Shown piece by piece: positions 1 to 51,100 of a stretch of 57,383 bases of DNA. Numbering within the stretch: the first letter of the stretch is position 1; each line of letters opens with the position of its first letter. This DNA comes from Isurus oxyrinchus (Eukaryota), in contig JANJGN010000150.1 of assembly GCA_026770705.1 (NCBI GenBank), positions 1,178,001 through 1,235,383 of the forward strand. Reading direction: 5' to 3'. The notes beneath the pieces were generated by a model, which ran no database searches, was not told where the DNA came from, and worked only from the letters and a program-made list of their open reading frames with translations. The translations under genes were made by a program, and so were the position numbers.

Positions 1-4
1 ACAG

Positions 5-50
5 AATGAAATGTGTTGAAATATTCTCTCCCCTTCCCAAAATGGGCCAG
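5..50 (+). CDS. Possible cytoplasmic-tail exon of the upstream receptor gene (MKCVEIFSPLPKMGQ); acceptor context cut off by the window edge
   Basis: ACAG at 1-4 and CAG|GTAATA donor at 50/51. Only one frame is open, and it ends in phase 0, matching the exon at 2615. No homology recognised. Confidence 0.25.
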
Positions 51-284
51 GTAATAACTTTCCCCATGGCTGATGCATGTGGTGCAATTACTCCTTCACC
101 TCATAGATGGAGTACCAGATGCTAAGGTTAAGGACAGACATCCATTTATACGGCACATTCCCCTTCTCTCTCGATAAGGCTTCAGTTATTACATGTTAAA
201 CAGGAGCCATGGAGCACAGTGCGCTGAGGAGTGACAATAGTTAACAGGGCTCCCATTAACATAACTCACCTTCACCCTATTAGG

Positions 285-1705
285 CTGACAAGTCCCTAGG
301 TTCTCATGAGCTGCATCTTCACACCTTAAATGTGGCTGCAGAGAAAGTAGATGTGTTGCTTGTAATTTTCCAAAACTCCCTAGATTCTGGAAAAGTCCCA
401 GCAGATTGAAAAAAATCTCAAATGTAACATTTCTATTCAAGAAAGGAGGGAGACAGAAACAGGAAAGTACAGGCCACTTAGTCCAACACCTGTGATAGGG
501 AAAATACTAGAATCTATTAATAAGGAGGTTAGAGAGAACATTTAGCAAATCTAAATGCAATCAGGCAGAGTCACCATGGTTTTGCATTCTTTAACAAAGT
601 ATCAAGCAACTGTGGATAAAGGAGATGTGGTATACTTGGATTTACATAAGGCATTCAACACGGTGTCACTTCAAAGGTTACAAGTCAAAATATGAGCTCC
701 TGGTGTCAGGGGTAACATATTAGCGTGCAGAGAGGATTGGTTCAGGAACAGGAGCATAGAATAGGGATAAGCAGGTTATTTTCGGGTTAGCAGGGTTTAA
801 TGAGTGCAATGCAATAGGGATCAGTGCTGGAGCCTCAACTATTTACAACTTACGTCAATGACTTAGATGAAGGGACCGAATGTATTGTTGCTAACGTTGC
901 TGATGACACAAAGAAAGGCAGGAGAGTGAGTTGTGAAGAGGACATAAGGAGTCTGCAAAGGGATATAGATAGGCTAAGTGAATGGGTACAAAATTGGCAG
1001 ATGGAGCATAAGGTGGGAAAATATGACCTTGTCCACTTGGGCAGGAGAAGAGAAAAGCAGCAAATGATCTAAATGGAGAGAGATTGCAGAACTTTAAGGT
1101 ACAGAGGGATCTGGGTGTCCTGGTACATGAATCACAATAAGTTAGTAAGCAGATGCAGCAAGTGATTAGGAAGGCAAATGGAATGTTGCCATTTATTGCG
1201 AGGGGACTGGAATATAAAAGTAGGGATGTTTTTTCTACAGTTGCACAGGGCATTGGTGAGACCACATCTGGAAAACTGTGCACAGTTTTGGTCCCATTTT
1301 AGAAAGGACATTATTGCATTAGTCGCAGTTCAGAGAAGGTTCGCTCGACTGGTTCCTGGAACGTGGGGGTTATCTTACGAGGAAAGGTTGGACAGGCTGG
1401 GCCTGAAGCCATTGGAGGCAACACAGTTTCAAAATAAGGAGCCTTCCATTTAAAATGGTGATGAGGAGGGATTATTTCCCCTCAGGGATTCTTCAGTATT
1501 TGGAATTCTCCTACCCTGGCAGCAGTGGATGCTGGATCATTGAACGTGTTTAAGGCTGAGTTAGTTGGATTCCTGACTGACAAGACAGCTAGGGGTATAG
1601 GAGGTAAACGGGAAAGTTGTGTTAAGGCCACAGTCAGATTAACCATGATCATATAAAATGGTGGAACAGGCTCGAGGGGCCGAAAGGTCTGTGTCTGTCC
1701 CTAAT
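285..1705 (+). mobile_element. CR1-type LINE, decayed RT ORF2 plus 3' UTR
   Basis: RT-like translations (VLEPQLFTTYVNDLDEG, VADDTK, LVRPHLENCAQFWS, LSYEERL) with stops and frameshifts. Typical 3' end aatggtggaacaggctcgaggggccgaa near 1657-1685. Confidence 0.9.
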
Positions 1706-1721
1706 TCATATGTGCGTGTGT

Positions 1722-1845
1722 CCCAGAGCATTTCACAGCCAATGAAGTAATTTTGAAGAGTAGTCATATGTTGTAACGTAGGATACGAGGCAGCCAATTC
1801 TTACACAGCAAGATCCAACAAACAGCAATGTGATAATGACCCAGG
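1722..1845 (-). mobile_element. Deu-domain SINE fragment (AmnSINE1/SacSINE1-like)
   Basis: Reverse complement of the cattgctgtttgtgggatcttgctgtgc...aattggctgcc core; other copies at 9875, 18790, 34805, 42300 and 53740. Confidence 0.7.
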
Positions 1846-1904
1846 TCACCTGTGTGGATCTGCTGATCGAGGAAAACTCAACCGCACATCTTTAGAAGTA
1901 AAAG

Positions 1905-2520
1905 TATCAATAATCAAACCCCATTCAGTATCAACAATAAAACCCCGTTCAGCATCAATAATCAAACCCCGTTCAGCATCAATAATCAAACCCCGTTCAG
2001 TAGCAATAATCAAACCTTCGTACAGTATCAATAATCAAACCTTCGTACAGTATCAATAATCAAACCCCGTTCACGATCAATAATCAAACCCTGTTTCAGT
2101 ATCAATAATCAAACCCCGTTCAGTATCAATAATCAAACCCCGTTCAGTATCAATAATCAAACCCTGTTCAGTATCAATAATCAAACCCCGTTCAGAATCA
2201 ATAATCAAACCCCGTTCAGAATTAATAATCAAACCCCTTTCACTATCAATAATCAATCACCGTCCAGTGTCAATAATCAACCCCGTTCAGAATCAATAAT
2301 CAAATCCCGTTCAGTATCAATAATCAAATCCCGTTCAGTATCAATAATCAAACCCTGTTCAGTATCAATAATCAAATCCCGTTCAGTATCAATAATCAAA
2401 CCCCGTTCAGTATCAATAATCAAATCCCGTTCAGTATCAATAATCAAACCCCGTTCAGTATCAATAATCAAATCCCGTTCAGTATCAATAATCAAACACT
2501 GTTCAGTGTCAATAATTAAT
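1905..2520. repeat. 24-bp minisatellite (TCAATAATCAAACCCCGTTCAGTA), about 25 copies
   Basis: Direct tandem repeat; explains the IIDTERGL-repeat ORFs. Confidence 0.95.
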
Positions 2521-2614
2521 GTCTCTATTGTGGGTGGAATTTTCGATTTGGATCAATAATACTAAACACTGATCACTCTGATTGTCACTCTGATCATTTC
2601 TGTTTCTATTACAG

Positions 2615-2731
2615 AAGAAAGATGAGAAGGTTCTGGAAATGAAATCTAACCGCGGAGTCAATCCTGATACAGATGATGATCTTTACGCAAACTGTGAATT
2701 TGCTGAGGATTCTGTTTATGGGAATTTATAA
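2615..2731 (+). CDS. Terminal coding exon of an upstream receptor gene; cytoplasmic tail KKDEKVLEMKSNRGVNPDTDDDLYANCEFAEDSVYGNL* with an ITIM-like motif
   Basis: Pyrimidine tract tttctgtttctattacAG at 2597-2614, 38 open codons in phase 0, TAA at 2729-2731. SVYGNL fits S/I/V/L-x-Y-x-x-I/V/L and a second Tyr lies in DLYANC. Unique AT-rich UTR-like sequence follows. Confidence 0.65.
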   Translation, partial: KKDEKVLEMKSNRGVNPDTDDDLYANCEFAEDSVYGNL

Positions 2732-3478
2732 ACTGAGCAAGAATGAGACACACACAGTGTGGGGAGAATACAGAACGGGAGAATCATTCAAAACTCCAAT
2801 TTACCTTCCTAATATCCACAGGAACTCACTCACAGGAAATAGATTTAAACCTCTTGTTACAATCTGATGGAATTTCTTCGGAATGATCTATCCAGGATGG
2901 TTGTCTGTGGGTTTCAATTCGAACATCCTCCTTCAGAATTGTCCCTCCCTGTTGGAAACATCCTTCTCTCCATTCTGATTGTAAATGTCTTTAGATATCG
3001 TTCGATGATGTACCAGGACAGAACGGACAAATTCAATTCCGTGTCCGTGATTAAGAGTTAATTTTCATTCTGTTATTCACCTTCCTGTCTGTCAGTGTTT
3101 ACAGAATATTCATCAGCCAGTGTAGATTTCAGGAAATGCAGGATCAGTGGATAATTGGAGCAGAGAAGATAGGAATAATTTACTCAGCATTTTACAGTCA
3201 AACTTATTTTCAGATATTTGGATTTTATATTTCATTATTAAATAGCGAAACTAACAACAATCTGGGAAACAGGGAAACAGAGTTGCTTGTAGAATTGGGA
3301 AATTCTCTCCAACACAAAGGAAAACCGAAGACCTAGAGTGCCACCACTGGTGGGAGGACATCAGTACAGCGTGACGTGTTTACATTGTAATTGTGGACAG
3401 AGGAAATTATGCTGTACGTTTTTCAATACATCATAGATGGATGAAACACAATGTGATTACAGAACAAGCTAAAGCTAC

Positions 3479-3484
3479 AATAAA
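3479..3484 (+). terminator. Candidate polyadenylation signal (AATAAA) of the upstream receptor gene
   Basis: AATAAA about 750 nt after the stop at 2731, at the end of the unique AT-rich segment. Confidence 0.45.
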
Positions 3485-3785
3485 CAACCATTTTAGTCTC
3501 TCAGTCTCTGAAAGTGCATTTAGCATTCATCCTGATGGCTGAGTGGTTGGGTGGACTGTGCTGTGTGTTACAGATTACAGAGACCAACATCCTAGATCCA
3601 GGTTCAGCTCTGTGTTTGATTAAAAGATCCCAACCAAATTTGTAGAACAAAGATTGGGAAAATAAGTAATTCACCAGCATTAATCTGTAATTGATTAATC
3701 TCCCTCTGTTAATCATTTAAGGACAGGATTGGGTTTGAGGGCGTTACCCTCCAGAATCATACACATCCATTGATTGCCCATTGAA

Positions 3786-4555: not shown

Positions 4556-5216
4556 CAGCCTTGGCACCAAAGGGGTTACCAGTTTGCTTACGGTGCAAGA
4601 CAAAGTGTTGGTTTCTCACATTCACACCAACCACCTCACATTTTGATTCACAGTGACACATCAACCCTTTCTAATTAAATACACAGAGGGAGCAGCACAG
4701 GAAGAGGTCATTCAGCCCAAGCAGAGCGTGTGGGCAGTTCCTCCACAGGCGAGCAGTCGGTCCTGGGTAAGTAACAGAACGATTGGAATTCACTTCCACA
4801 ACCAACACCGTCCTTTGTTGATGTTGTGACTTTATAAAGTCAGATTCCAATGCTTGATGGCTTTGAAAGATTTCTACTGATTATTGAGATCTGGGTGTGA
4901 GGCTCAAGTTTGTTGTACAGAACATCTTTCTAGCTCAAGGGATGAGGTAAGTGCAGAGACACGAGCTTTGGGACATCCTGAGGTGGTGAAAGGCGCAATG
5001 GAAATGCAAGTCCTTCATTGTTTTTCTTTCTTAAAGCCTTGTGACACTCTGCAGAGCACCTATCATCCCACAGAGAATCAAATTAGTCTGTGAAGACATT
5101 GTCTAAAAGCAGTTCCGATCTCTCGACAGCTGTCGGACAAGAGGTGAGGTCTCATTAACTCCTTTCTCTTTCACAGCTTGAGAGTGAGAAGTGGATGGAA
5201 TATCTGGGAGTGGACA

Positions 5217-5256
5217 ATGATCGGGAAATCTTACTTCCTCCTGTCACTTCTCCAAG
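5217..5256 (+). CDS. Siglec-like gene, leader exon coding part (MIGKSYFLLSLLQ)
   Basis: Acceptor ctctttcacAG ends at 5176, ATG at 5217 in an ACAATGA context, hydrophobic stretch, phase-1 donor CAAG|GTAATA. Joins the V exon to give ...LLQVGLS/QEWK. Confidence 0.75.
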
Positions 5257-5431
5257 GTAATATCACCATCAGCTCAGACAGATTTATGGTTAATAGTCTT
5301 TGTAAAAGATCATTCTTATTGAGCTGTGATTGGGAACCGATTCAGCAGTGACCCAGTGTACAGACTCACAACAAGTCCCATTCACCCATCACCCCTGTGC
5401 TCACTGATATACACTGACTCCCTGTCTGGCA

Positions 5432-5605
5432 GCAGAATTGGAGGAGAGCAGAGATCTCAGAGGGCTGCAGGGGCTGGAGGAGGTTACAGAGATAGGGAGG
5501 GAAGAGGGGGTTTAAGGGATTGGAATTGAGGATGAGGATCTTAAAATCGAGGTGTTGCTTGACTGGGAGCCTATGTAGGTCAGCGTGAATGGGGGTGGGT
5601 GGTAA
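5432..5605 (-). mobile_element. L2-like LINE 3' fragment
   Basis: Reverse complement of the family at 8500-8970 and 16120-16420; contains one copy of the 37-bp unit. Confidence 0.55.
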
Positions 5606-6100
5606 AAGGTTGAGTAGAAAATCAGGAATAAAAACTGGGGATGAAGTCTATCCCGATGCTAGGAATCCGATAGCCATATACTGAAATTTGTGTCTTTTGC
5701 TGATTTTAGTCAGAATTTCTCATGAAGACAACACAGCAGCTCCTAGAATAGACAGGCTGTTCAGTGTCACAATTCCTGTCCATTCTCACCTTGCTAGATA
5801 CTTCAATAAGGGAGCAAGATAACTGAAAGAGAGAAGGAAGGTAAAGCTGTCCGTGTGTAAATGTGTCAATATTCAGTTTGCATATTTGTCTTTCTCTCGA
5901 CACATGCAGAGCTCAGGCTAGAGGCACTTTGTTAGTGTGTTTCACAGTCTCTGCTGGAGTAGGGTCAGTGCTGAACTTGGAGACAAGTCAGTCTACAATG
6001 CTGCATCCGAATCAACAATACAACAATATGGGGTTTGGATCAGAAATAATCCCTTAGACAATGAGGATCCAAAGAGATTCCATAGACAATGAGGTTCCAA

Positions 6101-7620
6101 TCTCCACCCCTCCATCATTTTCACGTGGTCCATCTCTGACACTTCCCTTCCCTTCCTTGACCTCTCTGTCTCAATCTCTGGTGATAGACTGTCCACCAAT
6201 ATCCATTACAAACCCACCGACTCCCACAGCTACCTCGACTACATCTCCTCACACCCCGCTTCCTGTAAAGACTCCATCCCATTCTCCCAGTTCCTTCGCC
6301 TTCGTCGCATCTGTTCCGATGATGCTACCTTCAAAAACGGTTCCTCTGACATGTCCTCCTTCTTCCTTAACCGAGGTTTTCCACCCACGGTCATTGACAG
6401 GGCCCTCAACCGTGTCCGGCCCATCTCCCACACATCCGCCCTCACGCCTTCTCCTCCCTCCCAGACACATGATAGGGTCCCCCTTGTCCTCACTTATCAC
6501 CCCACCAGCCTCCGCATTCAAAGGATCATCTCCGCCATTTCCGCCAACTCCAGCATGATGCCACCACCAAACACATCTTCCCTTCACCCCACTTATCGGC
6601 ATTCCGTAGGGATCGCTCCCTCTGGGACACCCTGGTCCACTCCTCCATCACCCCCTACTCCTCAACCCCCTCCTATGGCACCACCCCATGCCCACGCAAA
6701 AGATGTAACACCTGCCCCTTCACTTCCTCTCTCCTCACCGTCCAAGGGCCCAAACACTCCTTTCAAGTGAAGCAGCATTTCACTTGCATTTCCCCCAACT
6801 TAGTCTACTGCATTCATTGCTCCCAATGTGGTCTCCTCTACATTGGAGAGACCAAACGTAAACTGGGCGACCGCTTTGCAGAACACCTGCGGTCTGTCCG
6901 CAAGAATGACCCAAACCTCCCTGTCGCTTGCCATTTTAACACTCCACCCTGCTCTCTTGCCCACATGTCTGTCCTTGGCTTGCTGCATTGTTCCAGTGAA
7001 GCCCAACGCAAACTGGAGGAACAACACCTCGTCTTCCGACAAGGCACCTTACAGCCTTCCGGACTGAATATTGAATTCAACAACTTTAGGTCGTGAGCTC
7101 CCTCCCCCATCCCCACCCCATTTCTGTTTCCCCCTTTCTTTTTTTTCCAATAAATTATATAGATTTTTCTTTTCCCACCTATTTCCATTATTTTTAAATA
7201 TTTTAAAATCTTTTATGCTCTCCCCACCCCCATTAGAGCTATACCTTGAGTGCCCTACCATCCATTTTTAATTAGCACATTCGTTTAGATAATATCACCA
7301 ACTTTAACTTTAACACCTATGTGTTCTATTGTACCATTGTCGTTGACATCTTTTGATGATCTGCTTCTATCACTGCTTGTTTGTCCATATAACCACACCC
7401 CCAACCACCCCCCCAACCACCCCCCCAGCAACCTCTCTCTCTCTCTCTCTATCTCTCCACCCACCACACACACACCTTAAACCAGCTTATATTTCAACTT
7501 TTTCTTGGACTCGAACTCAAGTTCTGTCGAAGGGTCATGAGGACTCGAAACGTCAACTCTTTTCTTCTCCGCCGATGCTGCCAGACCTGTTGAGTTTTTC
7601 CAGGTAATTCTGTTTTTGTT
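6101..7620 (+). mobile_element. 5'-truncated Penelope-like element: RT C-terminus, GIY-YIG endonuclease and 3' pseudo-LTR
   Basis: Frame from 6102 reads LHPSIIFTWSISDTSLPFLDLSV...YKPTDSHSYL...FLRLRRICS. ORF 6767-7096 reads NLVYCIHCSQCGLLYIGETKRKLGDRFAEH...CHFN...GLN, with a frameshift near 6530. Possible TSD gaggttccaa (6091-6100) / gaggatccaa (7621-7630). Confidence 0.9.
7519..7558 (+). ncRNA. Minimal hammerhead-ribozyme motif (variant core) in the Penelope pseudo-LTR
   Basis: AGUU-CUGUCGA-A-GGGUC(augag)GACUC-GAA-ACGU-C-AACU: stem I AGUU/AACU, stem II, palindromic ACGU, GUC site. The core differs from CUGANGA at one position. Confidence 0.6.
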
Positions 7621-8086
7621 GAGGATCCAAAGAGATTCTTTAGAGAATGAAGATTACAAAATGCACTAATTATATTGAATCAGATTAGCCAATCAGCTGT
7701 GCTGAAGAGCAGACAGGAATGTTAGGCTAATTAGTGATTCATGACGGTGATAATGGGGGGAGTTCTGAGGGCTCCTAATCCATTGTCCTGTCTTGTAAAT
7801 CAGCACTGAATGGATCTCAATTGGTGCATCTTGTAGACACTGTGTTGGGTGGAAGACTGGCTTCACTAAACTGGGTCCTGAGGACCATGAGCCAATGTAG
7901 AATGAACTTGTCCACTCCTGTGTCCAGGATTCACTTCCATCCATTCTGAAACCTTGGGGAGTTCCTTGTGTGTCCTGGAGATGGTCCACACTGCAGCCAC
8001 TGTGCCCCAGTGATGGAGGGAGTGGATATCGAGTGTAGTGGATCGAAAAAACATCCACAGTTAAATATTGAGATTTCTCTCCCCAG

Positions 8087-8455
8087 TTGGACTGTCACAA
8101 GAGTGGAAGGGTGACACGCCACAAGAGGTGATAGCGCAGGAAGGTTCGTGTGTACAGATTCCATGTCATTACAGTTATCTATCAGAGTTGGAAAACCAAC
8201 TGCGAGCTAGAGTCTGGTTTAATAATGAGAAACAGATTCCCTGGGCTCCCATAGCCTTTCACTCCAAGGATCACAGTCACGAGTTACCACGGTTCCGGCA
8301 TCAGCCCCGGCTGTCTGGAGACCTGAAAGATGGCGACTGTTCCCTGATTATAACCAACATCAGACGGGAAGATGCAGGACCTTATTTTTTCAGAATAGAA
8401 TTTGACATCAGGAACAGTTACAGCTACTATCCTGTAACCCAGCTTCACGTTTCTG
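8087..8455 (+). CDS. Siglec/MAG-like V-set Ig domain exon, copy 1
   Basis: ctctccccAG acceptor, G|GTAAG donor, 369 nt, phase 1-1. GSCVQIPC, W, LSGDLKDGDCSL and DAGPYFFRIE give the Siglec Cys pattern (B-E disulfide, no F-strand Cys) and the essential Arg. Confidence 0.9.
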
Positions 8456-8499
8456 GTAAGTGCTGCGTTATAATTACTATTCCAACGCACTCCTGGCTG

Positions 8500-8970
8500 G
8501 TCTCGCACATTCTACCCTCTGTAAACTTGGGGTCATCTTAAACTCTGCAGCCCCTGTCTTAACCAGCAGTAACTCCCATTCCCTTATCCCCCCCTGTACT
8601 CTCTGACCTTGAATGGCTCCTGGACAAGCAATGTCTTGATTTCAAAATGCTTGTCCTTGCTTCCTCCCTATCTCTGTAATCTCCTCCTGTGCTACAGCCT
8701 TCCCAGATTTCTGCACTCCTCTACCTCTGGACTCTTCAGCATCCCTGATTTCCATCGCTCCAGCATGGACGGCCAAGCCTTCAGTAGCCTGGGTCCTGAG
8801 ACTTAAATCCTTTCATCTTTCTATCTCCTCCTTTAAGGTGCTCCTTAAAACCCACCTCTTCAACCAAGATTCTGATCACCTGACCTAATATCTCCTTATA
8901 TGGTGTGGGACGATACTTTGTATTATAATGCTCCTGTGTAGCACCTTGTGATGTTTTATTACAATATAAT
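8500..8970 (+). mobile_element. L2-like LINE 3' fragment in the V1-V2 intron
   Basis: Similar to 16120-16420 and 5432-5605 (cctatctctgtaatctcctcc...gccttcagtagcctgggtcctgag...ctccttaaaacccacctct). Confidence 0.55.
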
Positions 8971-9250
8971 CTATTGTTCTATGCTCCTCTAGACCATTTA
9001 TATTCTTAATTTCAAGGTATTATGCAACCTCCTTATTTTCCTGACCAAAATATAATACCTCACATGTATTAATGTTGAAATTAATTTGTCAATTAACTGC
9101 CCATTCTGCAAGTTTATTAATATCTTCCTGCAAATTTGTTGCAGTCCTCCCTATTATTGACCATCCCCCCAATTCAGCCACATCTGTAAATATCGGGTTC
9201 AGTGGATCTACAAACCATCCAGAGTTAAATATTGATATTTCTCTCCCCAG

Positions 9251-9619
9251 TTGGACTGTCACAAGAGTGGAAAGGTGACACTCCACGAGAGGTGACAGCG
9301 CAGGAAGGTTCGTGTGTACAGATTCCATGTCATTACAGTTATCCATCGTGTCTGGAAAACCAACCGCGAGGTGCAGTCTGGTTTAATAATGAGAAACAGA
9401 TTCCCTGGGCTCCCATTGCCTTTCACTCGAAGGATCACAGTCACGAGTTACCACGGTTCCGCCATCGGACCCGGCTGTCTGGAGACCTGAAAGATGGCGA
9501 CTGTTCCCTGATTATAAACAACATCAGACGGGAAGATGCAGGACCTTATTTTTTCAGAATAGAATTTGACAATGGTTCGAGCTATAACTATTATCCTGTA
9601 ACCCAGCTTCACTTTTCTG
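9251..9619 (+). CDS. Siglec/MAG-like V-set Ig domain exon, copy 2
   Basis: Same length (369 nt) and phase as copy 1, intact AG/GT, about 91% identical by hand count (32 nt differences), YFFRIE retained. Confidence 0.9.
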
Positions 9620-9874
9620 GTACGTGCTGTGTTATAATTACTCAACAATTCACATTCAACACTCAATGGGAAATAACACAAACTGTGACGTTTACATATT
9701 AACACAAAACACAGTTTATTATAACACACTGTCTGATTCTCAATAACCTGGTGATAGCTTCCAGTTCAGTCCTAAAGCAACCTCTAATACTTACTTAAAT
9801 ATCAATGATTAAATGTACTGACTGTGTCCATCAATGTTATCAACTCCCATCGATCTCTCTAATCCTCTTTTAAA

Positions 9875-10045
9875 CGAAAGACTTGCATTTCTATAGCGCC
9901 GTTCACCACCTCAACACGTCTCTTGCATGTTCACAGCCAATGAAATATTTCCTGAGTTGTCGTTATCGTTGTCATGTCAGAAACACAGCTGACAATTAAT
10001 GCACAGAAAGATCCCACAGACTGCAATAACATAAATAACCCAGAT
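9875..10045 (-). mobile_element. Deu-domain SINE 3' fragment
   Basis: agacttgcatttctatagcgcc...cacagccaatgaa...gatcccacagactgcaat, reverse complement of the SINE tail. Confidence 0.65.
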
Positions 10046-10321
10046 CACTGAGACAATGGCCAGAGGGTGCACTCCAAACTCTGGTCTGCTCCACCACCCT
10101 CACCCACTATTATCAGTTCAAGTTTCTCGGAGTGAACATGTATTAAGCTGAGAGACAGAAACACCAAAGTCTCAAAGCAGGAAATTCTCTCCTGATCATT
10201 GTAATCTCTCAGTTCTGATATCATCCTTGTAAAAGTGCTTTCTCTTGTGGGACTGTGATTTCTATTTGAACTGATGCTTCACGTTATATTTCTCTAAAAG
10301 GATCCATTCTCTGTCTGTTAG

Positions 10322-10677
10322 ATTTCACAGATAAACCCACGATATTCCCTGCTGAAATTATTGCAGGAAAGCATGTGGATGTAAGCTGCACCTTCAACAC
10401 AACGTGCAATGGAACAGCAGCACCTGTCTTAACCTGGGACACTCCCACTGACGTACCTGGATCAGTCTCAAACACTGTAACTCAGCATGGTGTCACTCTG
10501 ACCTATACTTCTGTTCTGACCCTGACCCCATCACTCAAACACCACGGACACACTCTCAGCTGCAGAGTGAGATATCCATCTGTTTCATCGGAGCGTACCC
10601 TCGTACTAACTGTGCAACAGAAGTACAGACATCCTTCATTCTACATTAGCGACAGTCCGGTACTCCCCCGGTACTGA
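10322..10677 (+). CDS. Siglec-like C2-set Ig domain exon, read through to a stop codon
   Basis: ctctgtctgttAG acceptor, phase 1. DFTDKPTIFP...VSCTFNTTCNGTAAPVLTW...TSVLTLTPSLKHHGHTLSCRVRY...LVLTVQ, with the extra Cys typical of Siglec domain 2. The expected donor after 10618 reads C|AGAAGT; TGA at 10675-10677. Confidence 0.8.
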
Positions 10678-11114
10678 TCTCTAACAATGCAGCACTCCCT
10701 CAGTACTGATCTCCAACAATGCAGCGCTCCCCAGATACCGATCTCCAACAGTGCAGCACTCCCTCAGTACTGATCTCCGACAGTGCAGCACTCCCCCAGT
10801 ACTGATGTCCAACAGTCCAGCACTCCCCCAGTACTGATCTCCGACAGTGCAGCACTCCCCCAGTACTGATCTCCGACAGTGCAGCACTCCCTCAGTACTG
10901 ACCCTCTGACAGTGCAGCACTCCCTCAGTAGTGATCTCCGACAGTGCAGCACTCCCTCAGTACTGACCCTCTGACAGTGCAGCACTCCCCCAGTACTGAT
11001 CTCCGACAGTGCAGCACTCCCTCAGTACTGACCCTCCAACAGTGCAGCACTCCCCCAGTACTGAGCCTCTGACAGTGCAGCACTCCCTCAGTCATAATCC
11101 TCCGACAGTGCAGA
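10657..11114. repeat. 33-bp minisatellite (ACAGTGCAGCACTCCCTCAGTACTGACCCTCCG)
   Basis: Tandem repeat; source of the TVQHSLSTDPP and STEGVLHCRRV ORFs. Confidence 0.95.
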
Positions 11115-45630: not shown

Positions 45631-45879
45631 GAATTGATATTTTAAGAGGAGAAGCGGCAATCGCCCAAAAGGGACAGGGACTTGTTCAGTTTCAGGTAAA
45701 AAGCACCTTGGGCCAAATACACAGCTTTGTGGGCCGCCTCAAAGCCCGGACAGTTCTCCTTCAAGCAGACGGGGAAGTTTGACAGCAGCGTTCAAAATCC
45801 TGAAGGGGACAACTGGGAACAAAAGCTTTTCCCTTGCGCGGGGCCGACGCGACTCATTCCTCCCGCCTGGCCGGCTTAC

Positions 45880-46035
45880 CTCGGTGAACTTGTCCGCCAC
45901 CATGTAGCGCACACGCCACGACTTGTCCTCCACCGCCTGGCGCAGAGTGGGCATAACCAGGTTCTCCACCTCCTCGCGCTTCAGGAGCTGGGCGATGCTC
46001 ACGCAGGCTTCCACAGCCAGCAGCCGCACAGAGTC
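45880..46035 (-). CDS. PPP2R1A: PP2A scaffold subunit A, exon 6 ([52 protein letters not shown])
   Basis: 156 nt, ttgcAG/GTAAGC, conserved [11 protein letters not shown]. Confidence 0.96.
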
Positions 46036-46086
46036 CTGCAAGAGCCGTGCAGTCAGTCAGCGAGAGGAACCCGGGAGCAGCAGTCT

Positions 46087-49000
46087 CCATCGAGCTATCC
46101 CACCATCGAGCAATCCCACCATCGAGCTATCCCACCATCGAGCCATCCCACCATCGAACTATCCCACCATCGAACTATCCCACCATCGAGCTATCCCACC
46201 ATCGAGCTATCCCACCATCGAACAATCCCACCATCGAACTATCCCACCATCGAGCAATCCCACCATCGAGCTCTCCCACCATCGAGCTCCCCCACCATAG
46301 AGCTATCCCATCGAACAATCCCACCACCGAGCTCTCCCACCACCGAGCTCTCCCACCATCGAGCAATCCCACCATCGAGCCCTCCCACCATCGAGCTCTC
46401 CCACCACCGAGCTCTCCCACCATCGAACAATACCATCGAGCAATCCCACCATCGAGCTATCCCACCATCGAACAATCCCACCATCGAGCTATCCAACCAT
46501 CGAGCTCTCCCACCATCGAGCTATCCCACCACCGAGCTCTCCCACCATCGAGCTATCCCATCGAACAATCCCACCACCGAGCTCTCCCACCACCGAGCTC
46601 TCCCACCATCGAGCAATCCCACCATCGAGCCATCCCACCATCGAGCTATCCCACCATCGAGCCATCCCACGATCGAACTATCCCACCATCGAGCTCTCCC
46701 ACCATCGAGCTATCCCACCATCGAGCTATCCCACCATCGAGCTATCCCACCATCGAACTATCCCACCATCGAGCTCTCCCACCATCGAGCTATCCCATCG
46801 AACAATCCCACCATCGAGCTCTCCCACCATCGAGCTCTCCCACCATCGAGCTCTCCCACCATCGAGCAATCCCACCATCGAACTATCCCACCATCGAACT
46901 ATCCCACCATCGAACTATCCCACCATCGAACTATCCCACCATCGAGCCCTCCCACCATCGAGCCCTCCCACCATCGAACTATCCCACCATCGAGCCCTCC
47001 CACCATCGAGCCATCCCACCATCGAACTATCCCACCATCGAGCAATCCCACCATCGAGCTATCCCACCATCGAGCTATCCCACCATCGAGCTATCCCACC
47101 ATCGAACTATCCCACCATCGAACTATCCCACCATCGAGCTATCCCACCATCGAGCAATCCCACCATCGAACTATCCCACCATCGAACTATCCCACCATCG
47201 AGCTCTCCCACCATCGAACTATCCCACCATCGAACTATCCCACCATCGAGCTCTCCCACCATCGAGCTATCCCATCGAACTATCCCACCACCGAGCTCTC
47301 CCACCATCGAGCTTTCCCACCATCGAGCAATCCCACCATCGAACTATCCCACCATCGAGCCCTCCCACCATCGAGCTATCCCACCATCGAACTATCCCAC
47401 CATCGAGCCCTCCCACCATCGAACTATCGCACCATCGAACTATCCCACCATCGAGCTCTCCGACCATCGAGCTATCCCACCATCGAGCTATCACACCATC
47501 GAGCTCTCCCACCATCGAGCTATTCCACCATCGAGCTCTCCCACCATCGAACTATCCCACCATCGAGCTCTCCCACCATCGAGCTCTCCCACCATCGAGC
47601 TCTCCCACCATCGAGCTCTTTCACCATCGAACTATCCCATCGAACTATCCCACCATCGAGCTCTCCCACCATCGAACTATCCCACCATCGAACTATCCAC
47701 CATCGAGCTCTCCCACCATCGAGCTATCCCATCATCGAACTATCCCACCATCGAGCTCTCCCACCATCGAGCTCTCCCACCATCGAGCTCTTTCACCATC
47801 GACCTATCCCATCGAACTATCCCACCATCGAGCTCTCCCACCATCGAACTATCCCACCATCGAACTATCCCATCATCGAGCTCTCCCACCATCGAGCAAT
47901 CCCACCATCGAGCTCTCCCACCATCGAGCTATCCCATCGAACAATCCCACCACCGAGCTCTCCCACCACCGAGCTCTCCCACCATCGAGCAATCCCACCA
48001 TCGAGCCCTCCCACCATCGAGCTCTCCCACCACCGAGCTCTCCCACCATCGAACAATACCATCGAGCAATCCCACCATCGAGCTATCCCACCATCGAACA
48101 ATCCCACCATCGAGCTATCCAACCATCGAGCTCTCCCACCATCGAGCTATCCCACCACCGAGCTCTCCCACCATCGAGCTCTCCCACCATCGATCTATCC
48201 CATCGAACTATCCCACCACCGAGCTCTCCCACCACCGAGCTCTCCCACCATCGAGCAATCCCACCATCGAACTATCCCACCATCGAGCCCTCCCACCATC
48301 GAGCTATCCCACCATCGAACTATCCCACCGTCGAGCCCTCCCACCATCGAACTATCGCACCATCGAACTATCCCACCATCGAGCTCTCCCACCATCGAGC
48401 TATCCCACCATCGAGCTATCACACCATCGAGCTCTCCCACCATCGAGCTATTCCACCATCGAGCTCTCCCACCATCGAACTATCCCATCATCGAACTATC
48501 CCACCATCGAGCTCTCCCACCATCGAGCTCTCCCACCATCGAGCTCTTTCAACATCGAACTATCCCATCGAACTATCCCACCATCGAGCTCTCCCACCAT
48601 CGAACTATCCCACCATCGAACTATCCCACCATCGAGCTCTCCCACCATCGAGCTATCCCATCATCGAACTATCCCACCATCGAGCTCTCCCACCATCGAG
48701 CTCTTTCACCATCGAACTATCCCATCGAACTATCCCACCATCGAGCTCTCCCACCATCGAACTATCCCACCATCGAACTATCCCACCATCGAGCTCTCCC
48801 ACCATCGAGCTCTCCCACCATCGAGCAATCCCACCATCGAACTATCCCACCATCGAACTATCCCACCATCGAATGATCCCACCATCGAGCCCTCCCACCA
48901 TCGAGCCCTCCCACCATCGAACTATCCCACCATCGAGCCCTCCCACCATCGAGCCATCCCACCATCAAACTATCCCACCATCGAGCAATCCCACCATCGA

Positions 49001-50090
49001 GCTATCCCACCATCGAGCTATCCCACCATCGAACTATCCCACCATCGAACTATCCCACCATCGAGCTATCCCACCATCGAGCTATCCCACCATCGAGCTA
49101 TCCCACCATCGAACTATCCCACCATCGAACTATCCCACCATCGAGCGCTCCCACCATCGAGCTATCCCATCGAACTATCCCACCACCGAGCTCTCCCACC
49201 ACCGAGCTCTCCCACCATCGAGCTCTCCCACCATCGAACTATCCCACCATCGAGCCCTCCCACCATCGAGCTATCCCACCATCGAACTATCCCACCATCG
49301 AGCTCTCCCACCATCGAGCTATCCCACCATCGAGCTATCACACCATCGAGCTCTCCCACCATCGAGCTATCCCACCATCGAACTATCCCACCATCGAACT
49401 ATCCCACCATCGAGCTCTCCCACCATCGAGCTCTCCCACCATCGAGCTCTTTCACCATCGAACTATCCCATCGAACTATCCCACCATCGAGCTCTCCCAC
49501 CATCGAACTATCCCACCATCGAACTATCCCACCATCGAGCTCTCCCACCATCGAGCTATCCCATCATCGAACTATCCCACCATCGAGCTCTCCCACCATC
49601 GAGCTCTCCCACCATCGAGCTCTTTCACCATCGAACTATCCCATCGAACTATCCCACCATCGAGCTCTCCCACCATCGAACTCTCCCACCATCGAACTCT
49701 CCCACCATCGAACTATCCCACCATCGAACTATCCCACCATCGAACTATCCCACCATCGAACTATCCCACCATCGAGCTCTCCCACCATCGAACTATCCCA
49801 CCATCGAACTATCCCACCATCGAGCTCTCCCACCATCGAGCTCTCCCACCATCGAGCTATCCCACCATCGAGCTATCCCACCATCGAACTATCCCACCAT
49901 CGAGCTATCCCACCATCGAACTATCCCACCATCGAACTATCCCACCATCGAACTATCCCACCATCGAGCTCTCCCACCATCGAGCTCTCCCACCGTCGAG
50001 CTATCCCACCGTCGAGCTCTCCCACCATCGAGCTATCCCACCATCGAGCTATCCCACCATCGAGCTATCCCACCATCGAGCTATCCCACC
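46087..50090. repeat. 16-bp minisatellite (CCCACCATCGAGCTAT and variants), about 4 kb, about 250 copies
   Basis: Tandem repeat; source of the 1049-aa and 1354-aa ORFs. Confidence 0.97.
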
Positions 50091-50149
50091 AGCGCTACAT
50101 CAGGTCTGTAACATTAGCGGGCGGCGTTGCTGTTGGGAGATTGACATCG

Positions 50150-51100
50150 AGGCTACGCTGCATAAAGAGGCCATTCAGCCCCACTGCTCCGTGCCAGTGT
50201 TTCTGCTCCACACGAGCCTCCTCCCACCCCTCCACCTCTCCATCTCACCCCATCCTTCTATTCCTTTATCCCTCGTGTGTTTATCCAGATTCCCCATCAA
50301 CACTATTCACCTCCACCACTCCCTGTGGGAGCGAGTTCCACATTCTCCCCCCACTCTCTGGGTAAAGAAGTTTCTCCTGAATTTCCCCATTGGATTTATT
50401 AGCGACGATCATATATCGATAGTCCTCCTAGTTCTGGTCTCTGCCCCTCACAAGTGGAAACATCGTCTCTATGTCTACCCTATCGAAACCCTTTCAACAT
50501 TTGAAGACCTCTGTCAGGGTGAAAGAGCGGGGGGGGGAGGGGGGGGGGGGAGAGTGGACTCGGGACTAATTGGGTAGATCTTTCAAAGCTCCAGCGTAAG
50601 CACGATGGGCTGAATGGCCTCTGATCCAAGCCCCAGGAGAACGCTTCTGTCTGTGAAACACAAGAGACTTGGAAGCTCAAAGGGGGCAAATATTTGATTA
50701 TTGGAAACATATGAATATCAGTCAAGGTGAGCGTAAATGTTTGGTTATTATTCATAATGGTCGTCCCTTACCGGCATTTCCCGGACAGGCTAGAACTAGG
50801 GGGACACAGTTTAAAAATGAGGGGTCTTCCACTTAAGACGGAGATGAGGAAAGATTCTCTTCTCTCAGAGGGTCATTAGGTTCTGGAATTCTCATCCCCA
50901 GAGAGCAGGGGAGACTGGGTCACTGAATATGTTCCAGGCTGAGTTAGACAGATTTTTGACAGAAAAGGGAGTCAAGGGTTATTTGGGGGGGGGGGGTGTG
51001 GACAGGAAAGTGGAGATGAAGCCACATCAGATCAGCCACGATCTTATCCGAATGGCGGTGCAGGCTCGTGGGGCCGAATGGCCCACTCCTGGCCCTCCTT
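50150..51100. mobile_element. CR1 3' fragments (minus ~50150-50520, plus ~50790-51100)
   Basis: 50190-50400 is near-identical to 27150-27385; CR1 end caggctcgtggggccgaatggcc at 51061. Confidence 0.75.

Follow-up and report, generated by a model that had tools for sequence, protein, structure and literature searches.

We propose that positions 2615-3500 of the window, i.e. the whole 57,383-nucleotide stretch of DNA analysed here, which forms the final 57 kb of contig C150 in a 4.98-Gb assembly, constitute the end of a Siglec-like gene with 14 Ig exons, and that the main transcript of this gene probably skips a 133-nt exon, leading to a predicted basic tail of 16 residues without tyrosine. The ITIM is encoded in the cytoplasmic exon, yet it lies outside the translated frame of the only junction seen for the gene.

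The terminal exon

The terminal exon at 2615 is real, and the acceptor, the 38-aa frame, DLYANC, SVYGNL and AATAAA are all located where the original prediction had placed them. The 3' splice site (2598..2614; plus strand, as for the other exon and intron features of the window) has its AG at 2613-2614 with 13/17 pyrimidines 5' of it, and is identical in 43/43 tail-exon copies read, which were chosen from the best matches with up to 9 kb of upstream sequence and form a non-random part of 137 matches in the assembly. The tyrosine frame (2615..2731), open over 2615-2728 and closed by TAA at 2729-2731, encodes the acidic 38-aa tail and can be entered only from a phase-0 donor. It contains a first tyrosine motif, DLYANC (2678..2695), which is of the YxN type and does not fit the ITIM consensus, and the C-terminal SVYGNL (2711..2728), which is a YxN motif and also matches the consensus [I/V/L/S]xYxx[L/V] given in the available part of PMC7226832. 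The shifted frame (2615..2642), which results from direct splicing of the TM exon, comprises eight basic-rich codons and a TGA at 2640-2642, with no tyrosine, and RefSeq isoforms of Carcharodon and Cetorhinus have the same ending. A NAGNAG acceptor 3 nt downstream was considered as a frame rescue and discarded, as this shift does not restore the tyrosine frame.

An ITIM-like ending alone is weak evidence, because such consensus endings occur in 7 of the 3012 stop-terminated stretches (at least 30 aa, six frames) within 157 kb, i.e. the window and 100 kb upstream. Two YxN motifs at the spacing of the tail are present in 1/3012 of these stretches, the terminal exon alone.

The 3' UTR (2732..3502) carries an AATAAA at 3479-3484, 750 nt 3' of the tyrosine-frame stop. 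Contigs of four runs from three studies end near this signal, at 3486 (X1), 3502 (X2), 3498 (X5) and 3479 (X6); the runs are RNA by guess, none of them being on record as RNA. Together these contigs span 2611-3502 with ends at most 23 nt from the AATAAA, a DNA-type run continuing past it, which provides a weak hint of a poly(A) site at ~3479-3502.

The upstream receptor gene

In agreement with the original prediction, the gene that the terminal exon completes lies directly upstream in the same orientation and encodes a membrane-bound Ig receptor, with V, C2 and TM exons present. Three co-oriented Siglec-like genes were located by tblastn in the 100 kb upstream of the window. The nearest one begins with a signal-peptide exon 29.8 kb 5' of the window, followed by a V exon, a C2 exon, 11 repeated C2 exons, a membrane-proximal Ig-like exon and a TM exon, giving 14 Ig exons (V and 13 further, 11 of them tandem repeats). 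The repeated exon is 258 nt long and is part of a 1.7-kb tandem unit, the 11 copies sharing 92-97% nucleotide identity. AG/GT ends and a single open frame extend through the 15 exons that run from V to TM, and 11/11 repeats are stop-free. The membrane-proximal exon is assigned as Ig from its pattern and relatives, with no Pfam match at 0.01. The TM exon (121 nt) is in phase 2 at its 3' end and places a lysine at the outer edge of the helix rather than mid-helix, as also observed in tyrosine-tailed cat- and bamboo-shark orthologues. A truncated gene had been considered as the hydrophobicity cut-off missed the weak TM helix, and was rejected since the helix is visible in the sequence. A second genomic place, on C121, is 99.1% identical over 26.8 kb and perhaps represents the other allele.

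Siglecs account for 17 of the 21 PDB matches of the V domain, the best being MAG (E 1.8e-15), with sialoadhesin and CD33-related Siglecs among the others; by Pfam, V-set scores above the cut-off and Ig_CD22 slightly below. C2-set Ig domains, a single TM helix and a signal peptide, as expected for the Siglec architecture, are all present. We nevertheless refer to the gene as Siglec-like, not as a Siglec, because the F-strand sialic-acid arginine is missing, being replaced by tyrosine in the alignment to MAG and sialoadhesin; this tyrosine likewise occurs in every orthologue N-terminus inspected.

The middle exon and splicing into the terminal exon

The 133-nt first cytoplasmic exon, hereafter the middle exon, starts 83 nt 5' of the window (C150:1177918), and its 3' part occupies 1..50. 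It is intact, with AG/GT ends and an open frame leading from phase 2 to phase 0, and is found at two places in the assembly. Within the 6.9-kb interval from TM to tail, it is the sole frame-restoring candidate exon that passed the filter used. Inclusion yields a tail of 90 residues with two tyrosines, and direct splicing from the TM exon the 16-residue basic tail. Within the last intron (51..2614), a tandem array of 24-bp units spans 1903-2516, and visual inspection suggests LINE-like fragments. DNA-type contigs read through the donor at 50 and, in another, through the acceptor at 2614.

One contig of run X1 joins the 3' end of the TM exon to the acceptor at 2615 with 4 nt between, and therefore fixes phase 2 and the shifted frame. 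Since the TM exon has only two places in the assembly, both with an intron, the joined form represents spliced RNA of the upstream gene, and not a sister gene or a retrocopy. Including the X1 contig, whose loose end lies before L041:3011, RNA-type contigs join other exons to this acceptor (loose ends L041:3011 and 3012). Spliced entry at 2615 had been anticipated, for example from the donor at 50; the contigs do enter at the acceptor, but the one junction seen for this gene comes from the TM exon. The direct junction is one contig of one run and, as contigs drop rare forms, no bar to inclusion of the middle exon; contigs of X1, X2, X5 and X6 without this exon are not counted as evidence, as rare forms are lost and the records are filtered. 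The donor at 50 itself closes a genuine 133-nt ancestral exon that is used in cat- and bamboo-shark orthologues, which rules out a chance signal, yet it is skipped in the RNA evidence for the upstream gene.

Weak splice sites are unsupported as the cause of skipping, as those of the middle exon look ordinary. The intron after the TM exon (L011:5740-8800) contains ~3 kb of pyrimidine-rich satellite with 10 acceptor-like AG sites, the next intron having 0, and these sites are a possible cause. Relative to the same segment in the cat- and bamboo-shark orthologues, the middle exon is 48-52% identical, and its divergence from catshark is not above that of the TM or tail segments. A simulated unused exon still looked intact in 63, 41 and 26% of cases at 2, 4 and 6% neutral divergence, respectively, so the simulation decides nothing on a fixed loss of the middle exon.

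Orthologues in other sharks

Using the membrane-proximal exon as query, 9 proteins were retrieved, and a cluster look-up added members. The shifted frame closes every full-length isoform among those retrieved, 9/9 in Carcharodon and 13/13 in Cetorhinus (22/22 RefSeq isoforms of white and basking shark, automatic models of one locus per species); these counts omit one Cetorhinus model that terminates ahead of the TM exon and a catshark fragment lacking the C-terminus. These proteins (XP_041037164-173 of Carcharodon carcharias and XP_078389716-728 of Cetorhinus maximus, 'B-cell receptor CD22-like / Schwann cell myelin protein-like') are orthologues with 92-98% protein identity per exon to the upstream gene and the same tyrosine-free ending; identities this high probably place the window among the mackerel sharks. 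The orthologous proteins are hence already known in RefSeq under automatic names; the models differ in having at most 9 C2 repeats rather than 11, and do not display the skipped exon and the unused tyrosine frame. That the upstream gene may use another frame had been named in the original prediction as speaking against it, and this is the situation in the X1 junction and the 22/22 lamniform isoforms. As the ITIM frame is bypassed in both, the proposed 'probably inhibitory receptor' is unsupported for the main transcript.

The 'Myelin-associated glycoprotein-like' proteins of Scyliorhinus and Chiloscyllium (XP_072325038, XP_043539179) share the arginine-less V, membrane-proximal and TM exons, and a homologous middle exon and tail. 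In contrast to the lamniform proteins, they have 4-5 Ig domains and translate the tyrosine tail: the middle exon is followed by the tyrosine tail in 5/5 full-length proteins, 4 of which aligned over the middle exon. The originally proposed combination of middle exon and tyrosine tail is thus the ancestral form, because these orthologues retain both. The upstream gene has 11 C2 repeats, the longest isoforms of white and basking shark contain 9, and cat and bamboo sharks have 1-2. For a catshark paralogue, RefSeq annotates both tail forms (isoforms X1 and X2, which agree over 360 aa); skipping is therefore an old option.

Tail homologues and signalling potential

A protein search with the 38-aa tail, as had been suggested, gave no match for the tail alone, but 4 matches in a 50% representative library, of which one is real (the catshark orthologue P0145) and three are acidic repeats; no Pfam family covers the tail. 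When chondrichthyan Siglec-like proteins were collected via the V domain of the downstream gene, 24 of the 112 had a homologous tail at their C-terminus. Together with the orthologues, this set provided 27 homologous tails (P0118 and P0008 omitted), 1 of which is off pattern. Among the remaining 26, the first motif is YxN in 21 and the spacer 7 residues in 24, the last YxN being demanded by the search pattern, and a strict ITIM is present at the end in 12. What is conserved in the tail is the YxN pair, the ITIM being strictly kept in 12/26. YxN binds Grb2-type SH2 domains, and the motif spacing of the tail resembles that of an ITAM. In view of this likeness and the 12/26 count, the tail may signal in either direction where it is translated.

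In a further Siglec-like subfamily of sharks (P0053, P0056, P0060, P0064, P0070, P0106 and P0032), the tail is short and the TM helix carries an arginine near its start. The members of this subfamily are candidates for true adaptor-coupled activating partners.

The tail exon as a shared module in a shuffled cluster

A 27-base pattern at the end of the exon has 137 matches in the assembly with at most 1 mismatch (control 0), and the best 40 DNA matches of the tail exon are 99-100% identical. Among the 43 copies read, 26 lie behind a different set of exons whose phases fit the tyrosine frame: another TM exon, one of 85 nt and a tyrosine exon of 105 nt. A further 14 have neither a TM nor a cytoplasmic exon on their strand, 1 copy is partial and the remaining 2 represent the upstream gene. 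The use of this second module is supported by a contig of run X5, in which the 105-nt exon is spliced to the tail so that the tyrosine frame is read. The basking-shark protein P0066 matches this product, and other sharks and rays have homologues that likewise use the tyrosine frame. The arginine-less ectodomain is associated with the second TM module in 4/4 loci checked. In the two upstream neighbours, this ectodomain (113/118 V residues identical) is joined to a third TM, followed by an ITIM/ITSM-type tail of canonical form; in either neighbour, one repeat exon is partial and another frame-shifted. A first look gave 118 candidates for the arginine-less V exon and 815 for the arginine-bearing one, which are not gene counts, and unmerged alleles may inflate all numbers. 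Judged from these sequences, this is a shuffled, paired-receptor-like Siglec-like cluster, and the window is its end, as originally suspected, with no family exon found past 10.6 kb to the contig end.

Several further observations concern the cluster. Orphan tail exons (G000:C52:126677, C189:717567, C150:254567 and 11 more) lie back-to-back, 3-5 kb from an opposite-strand signal-peptide exon, and are ends left by inverted duplication. Fragments of 64 bases from the start of the membrane-proximal exon region are present ~8 kb 5' of other tail copies (C546:298005, C121:1153476, C52:3229976 and C52:707802), and are likely break points of shuffling. Genes with 4-6 tandem V exons followed by one C2 exon are located at C52:105927-115732 and C189:691825-705207, some of the V exons being without arginine or 67% identical. 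The 105-nt tyrosine exon has a GG instead of an AG acceptor in 5/26 complete modules (L047, L058, L060, L071 and L072); as its phase is 0-0, a transcript without this exon stays in frame but has one tyrosine motif fewer.

Relation to known receptors

MAG (Siglec-4) is related through the V domain, as its best PDB match. The available text of PMC7072810 attributes the L and S tails of MAG to alternative splicing, and that of PMC7226832 assigns ITIMs to fish MAG. However, MAG has five Ig domains and the arginine, whereas the upstream gene has 14 Ig exons, a tyrosine at this position and a large variable cluster around it. Siglec-1 (sialoadhesin) has 17 domains. Its long stalk and motif-free tail are matched by the skipped form with its 14 Ig exons and 16-residue tail, although the likeness is in the way of working only; the excerpt of PMC7226832 describes Siglec-1 as being without regulatory domains. 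Unlike Siglec-1, the upstream gene lacks the arginine, its stalk consists of one recently repeated exon, and the motif is lost through a frame shift with the sequence retained. Orthology to Siglec-1 is not indicated, the arginine being absent and the orthologues having 4-5 domains. For CD22, loss of exon 12 shifts the frame and removes the ITIMs. An exon-12 splice variant of CD22 exists (PMC9780083, available part). Paired CD33-related Siglecs such as Siglec-5/14 combine near-identical ectodomains with different tails (PMC4042635, available part), as in the shark cluster; Siglec-14 uses an adaptor, whereas the TM of the upstream gene is without mid-helix charge.

Siglecs are named once as a gnathostome novelty in the accessible part of PMC8455134, and bony fish have four Siglecs, none CD33-related, according to that of PMC7226832. 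A full-text literature search, assessed from titles and abstract starts and with subscription papers and supplements outside its scope, returned no description of a shark Siglec-like cluster or tail. Our data suggest that this shark has a Siglec-like cluster that is very large and shuffled, as opposed to the four bony-fish Siglecs listed in the same part of PMC7226832. They also illustrate that a genomic ITIM may look like a textbook case and yet stay untranslated in the very gene whose last exon encodes it, and that motif calls in such clusters need junction evidence.

Proposed mechanism and alternative explanations

We propose that skipping of the middle exon dominates in lamniforms. The mRNA of the skipped form would escape nonsense-mediated decay, because its stop sits in the last exon, and may give rise to a long-stalk receptor of ~1330 aa acting as a non-signalling adhesion or decoy molecule. 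Such a short-tailed receptor would compete with tyrosine-tailed sisters whose V domain is ~96% identical. The tyrosine frame may be kept through a persisting minor full-length isoform of ~1400 aa, and also through duplication or gene conversion with >100 sister copies.

Against this probable reading stand the intact middle exon and its ordinary-looking sites, the function of the short-tailed form being a prediction. The same exon, frame-restoring and used by the cat- and bamboo-shark orthologues, would be expected if the gene normally included it, with the 90-residue tail and its two motifs forming an inhibitory receptor that recruits SHP-1/2 and skipping a tissue by-product; SVYGNL does match the ITIM signature in the available part of PMC7226832. 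However, the sole junction seen for the gene skips the exon, which is included in 0/22 lamniform isoforms, and the strict ITIM is kept in 12/26 homologous tails, making normal inclusion unlikely. Less likely still, the short form is an activating receptor that employs the lysine at the outer TM edge to couple to an ITAM adaptor of the FcR-gamma/DAP12 type. A motif-free short tail on an ectodomain common to tyrosine-tailed neighbours is indeed the paired-receptor pattern, and activating Siglecs without ITIMs use DAP adaptors as stated in the accessible text of PMC7226832, but the lysine is not mid-helix and is the same in cat- and bamboo-shark orthologues with a tyrosine tail. The least probable scenario, for which we see very little room, is a decaying copy, with skipping as the first step of pseudogenisation and a product without role: the cluster does contain many broken pieces, including the 14/43 tail copies without same-strand TM exon in 9 kb and the broken repeat exons of the neighbours, yet the 15/15 open exons with canonical ends, the stop-free repeats, and the conservation in two further lamniform genera (92-98% protein identity, with the short tail shared) are difficult to reconcile with decay.

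Beyond skipping of the middle exon, we tentatively consider a broader and rather uncertain scenario, in which sharks possess a paired-receptor system with the terminal exon as an on/off switch by frame. Mackerel sharks may have fixed 'off' in an old MAG-like gene while multiplying one Ig exon 9-11x, re-inventing a sialoadhesin-like silent receptor, with >100 shuffled exon copies providing the double-YxN tail with its ITAM-like spacing to a cluster far larger than that of mammals. If confirmed, frame-based tail switching and stalk expansion represent a testable case for the early origins of paired or decoy receptors in jawed vertebrates.

Downstream gene and remainder of the window

The downstream Siglec-like gene (~5177-10680) comprises a signal-peptide exon (5177-5256), two V exons (8087-8455 and 9251-9619) that are 92% identical and carry the sialic-acid arginine, and a C2 exon beginning at 10322 that lacks a standard donor. 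As the remaining sequence to the contig end yielded neither a TM nor a tail exon, the gene is secreted or truncated. Its exons have no nucleotide match in the 100 kb upstream of the window, where the genes belong to another subfamily.

Elsewhere in the window, no Pfam family has a passing stretch in any long ORF, bar a weak GIY-YIG match that falls below the cut-off, in a Penelope-like retroelement remnant at 6060-7100. Overlapping ORFs of >1000 codons at 45700-50577 lie in C-rich repeats, without a passing Pfam stretch, and are probably satellite. A copy of the first cytoplasmic exon of the sister family is located at 4687..4766 (80 nt vs 85), ~490 nt 5' of the signal-peptide exon, likewise in many other copies, and may serve as a 5' UTR exon.
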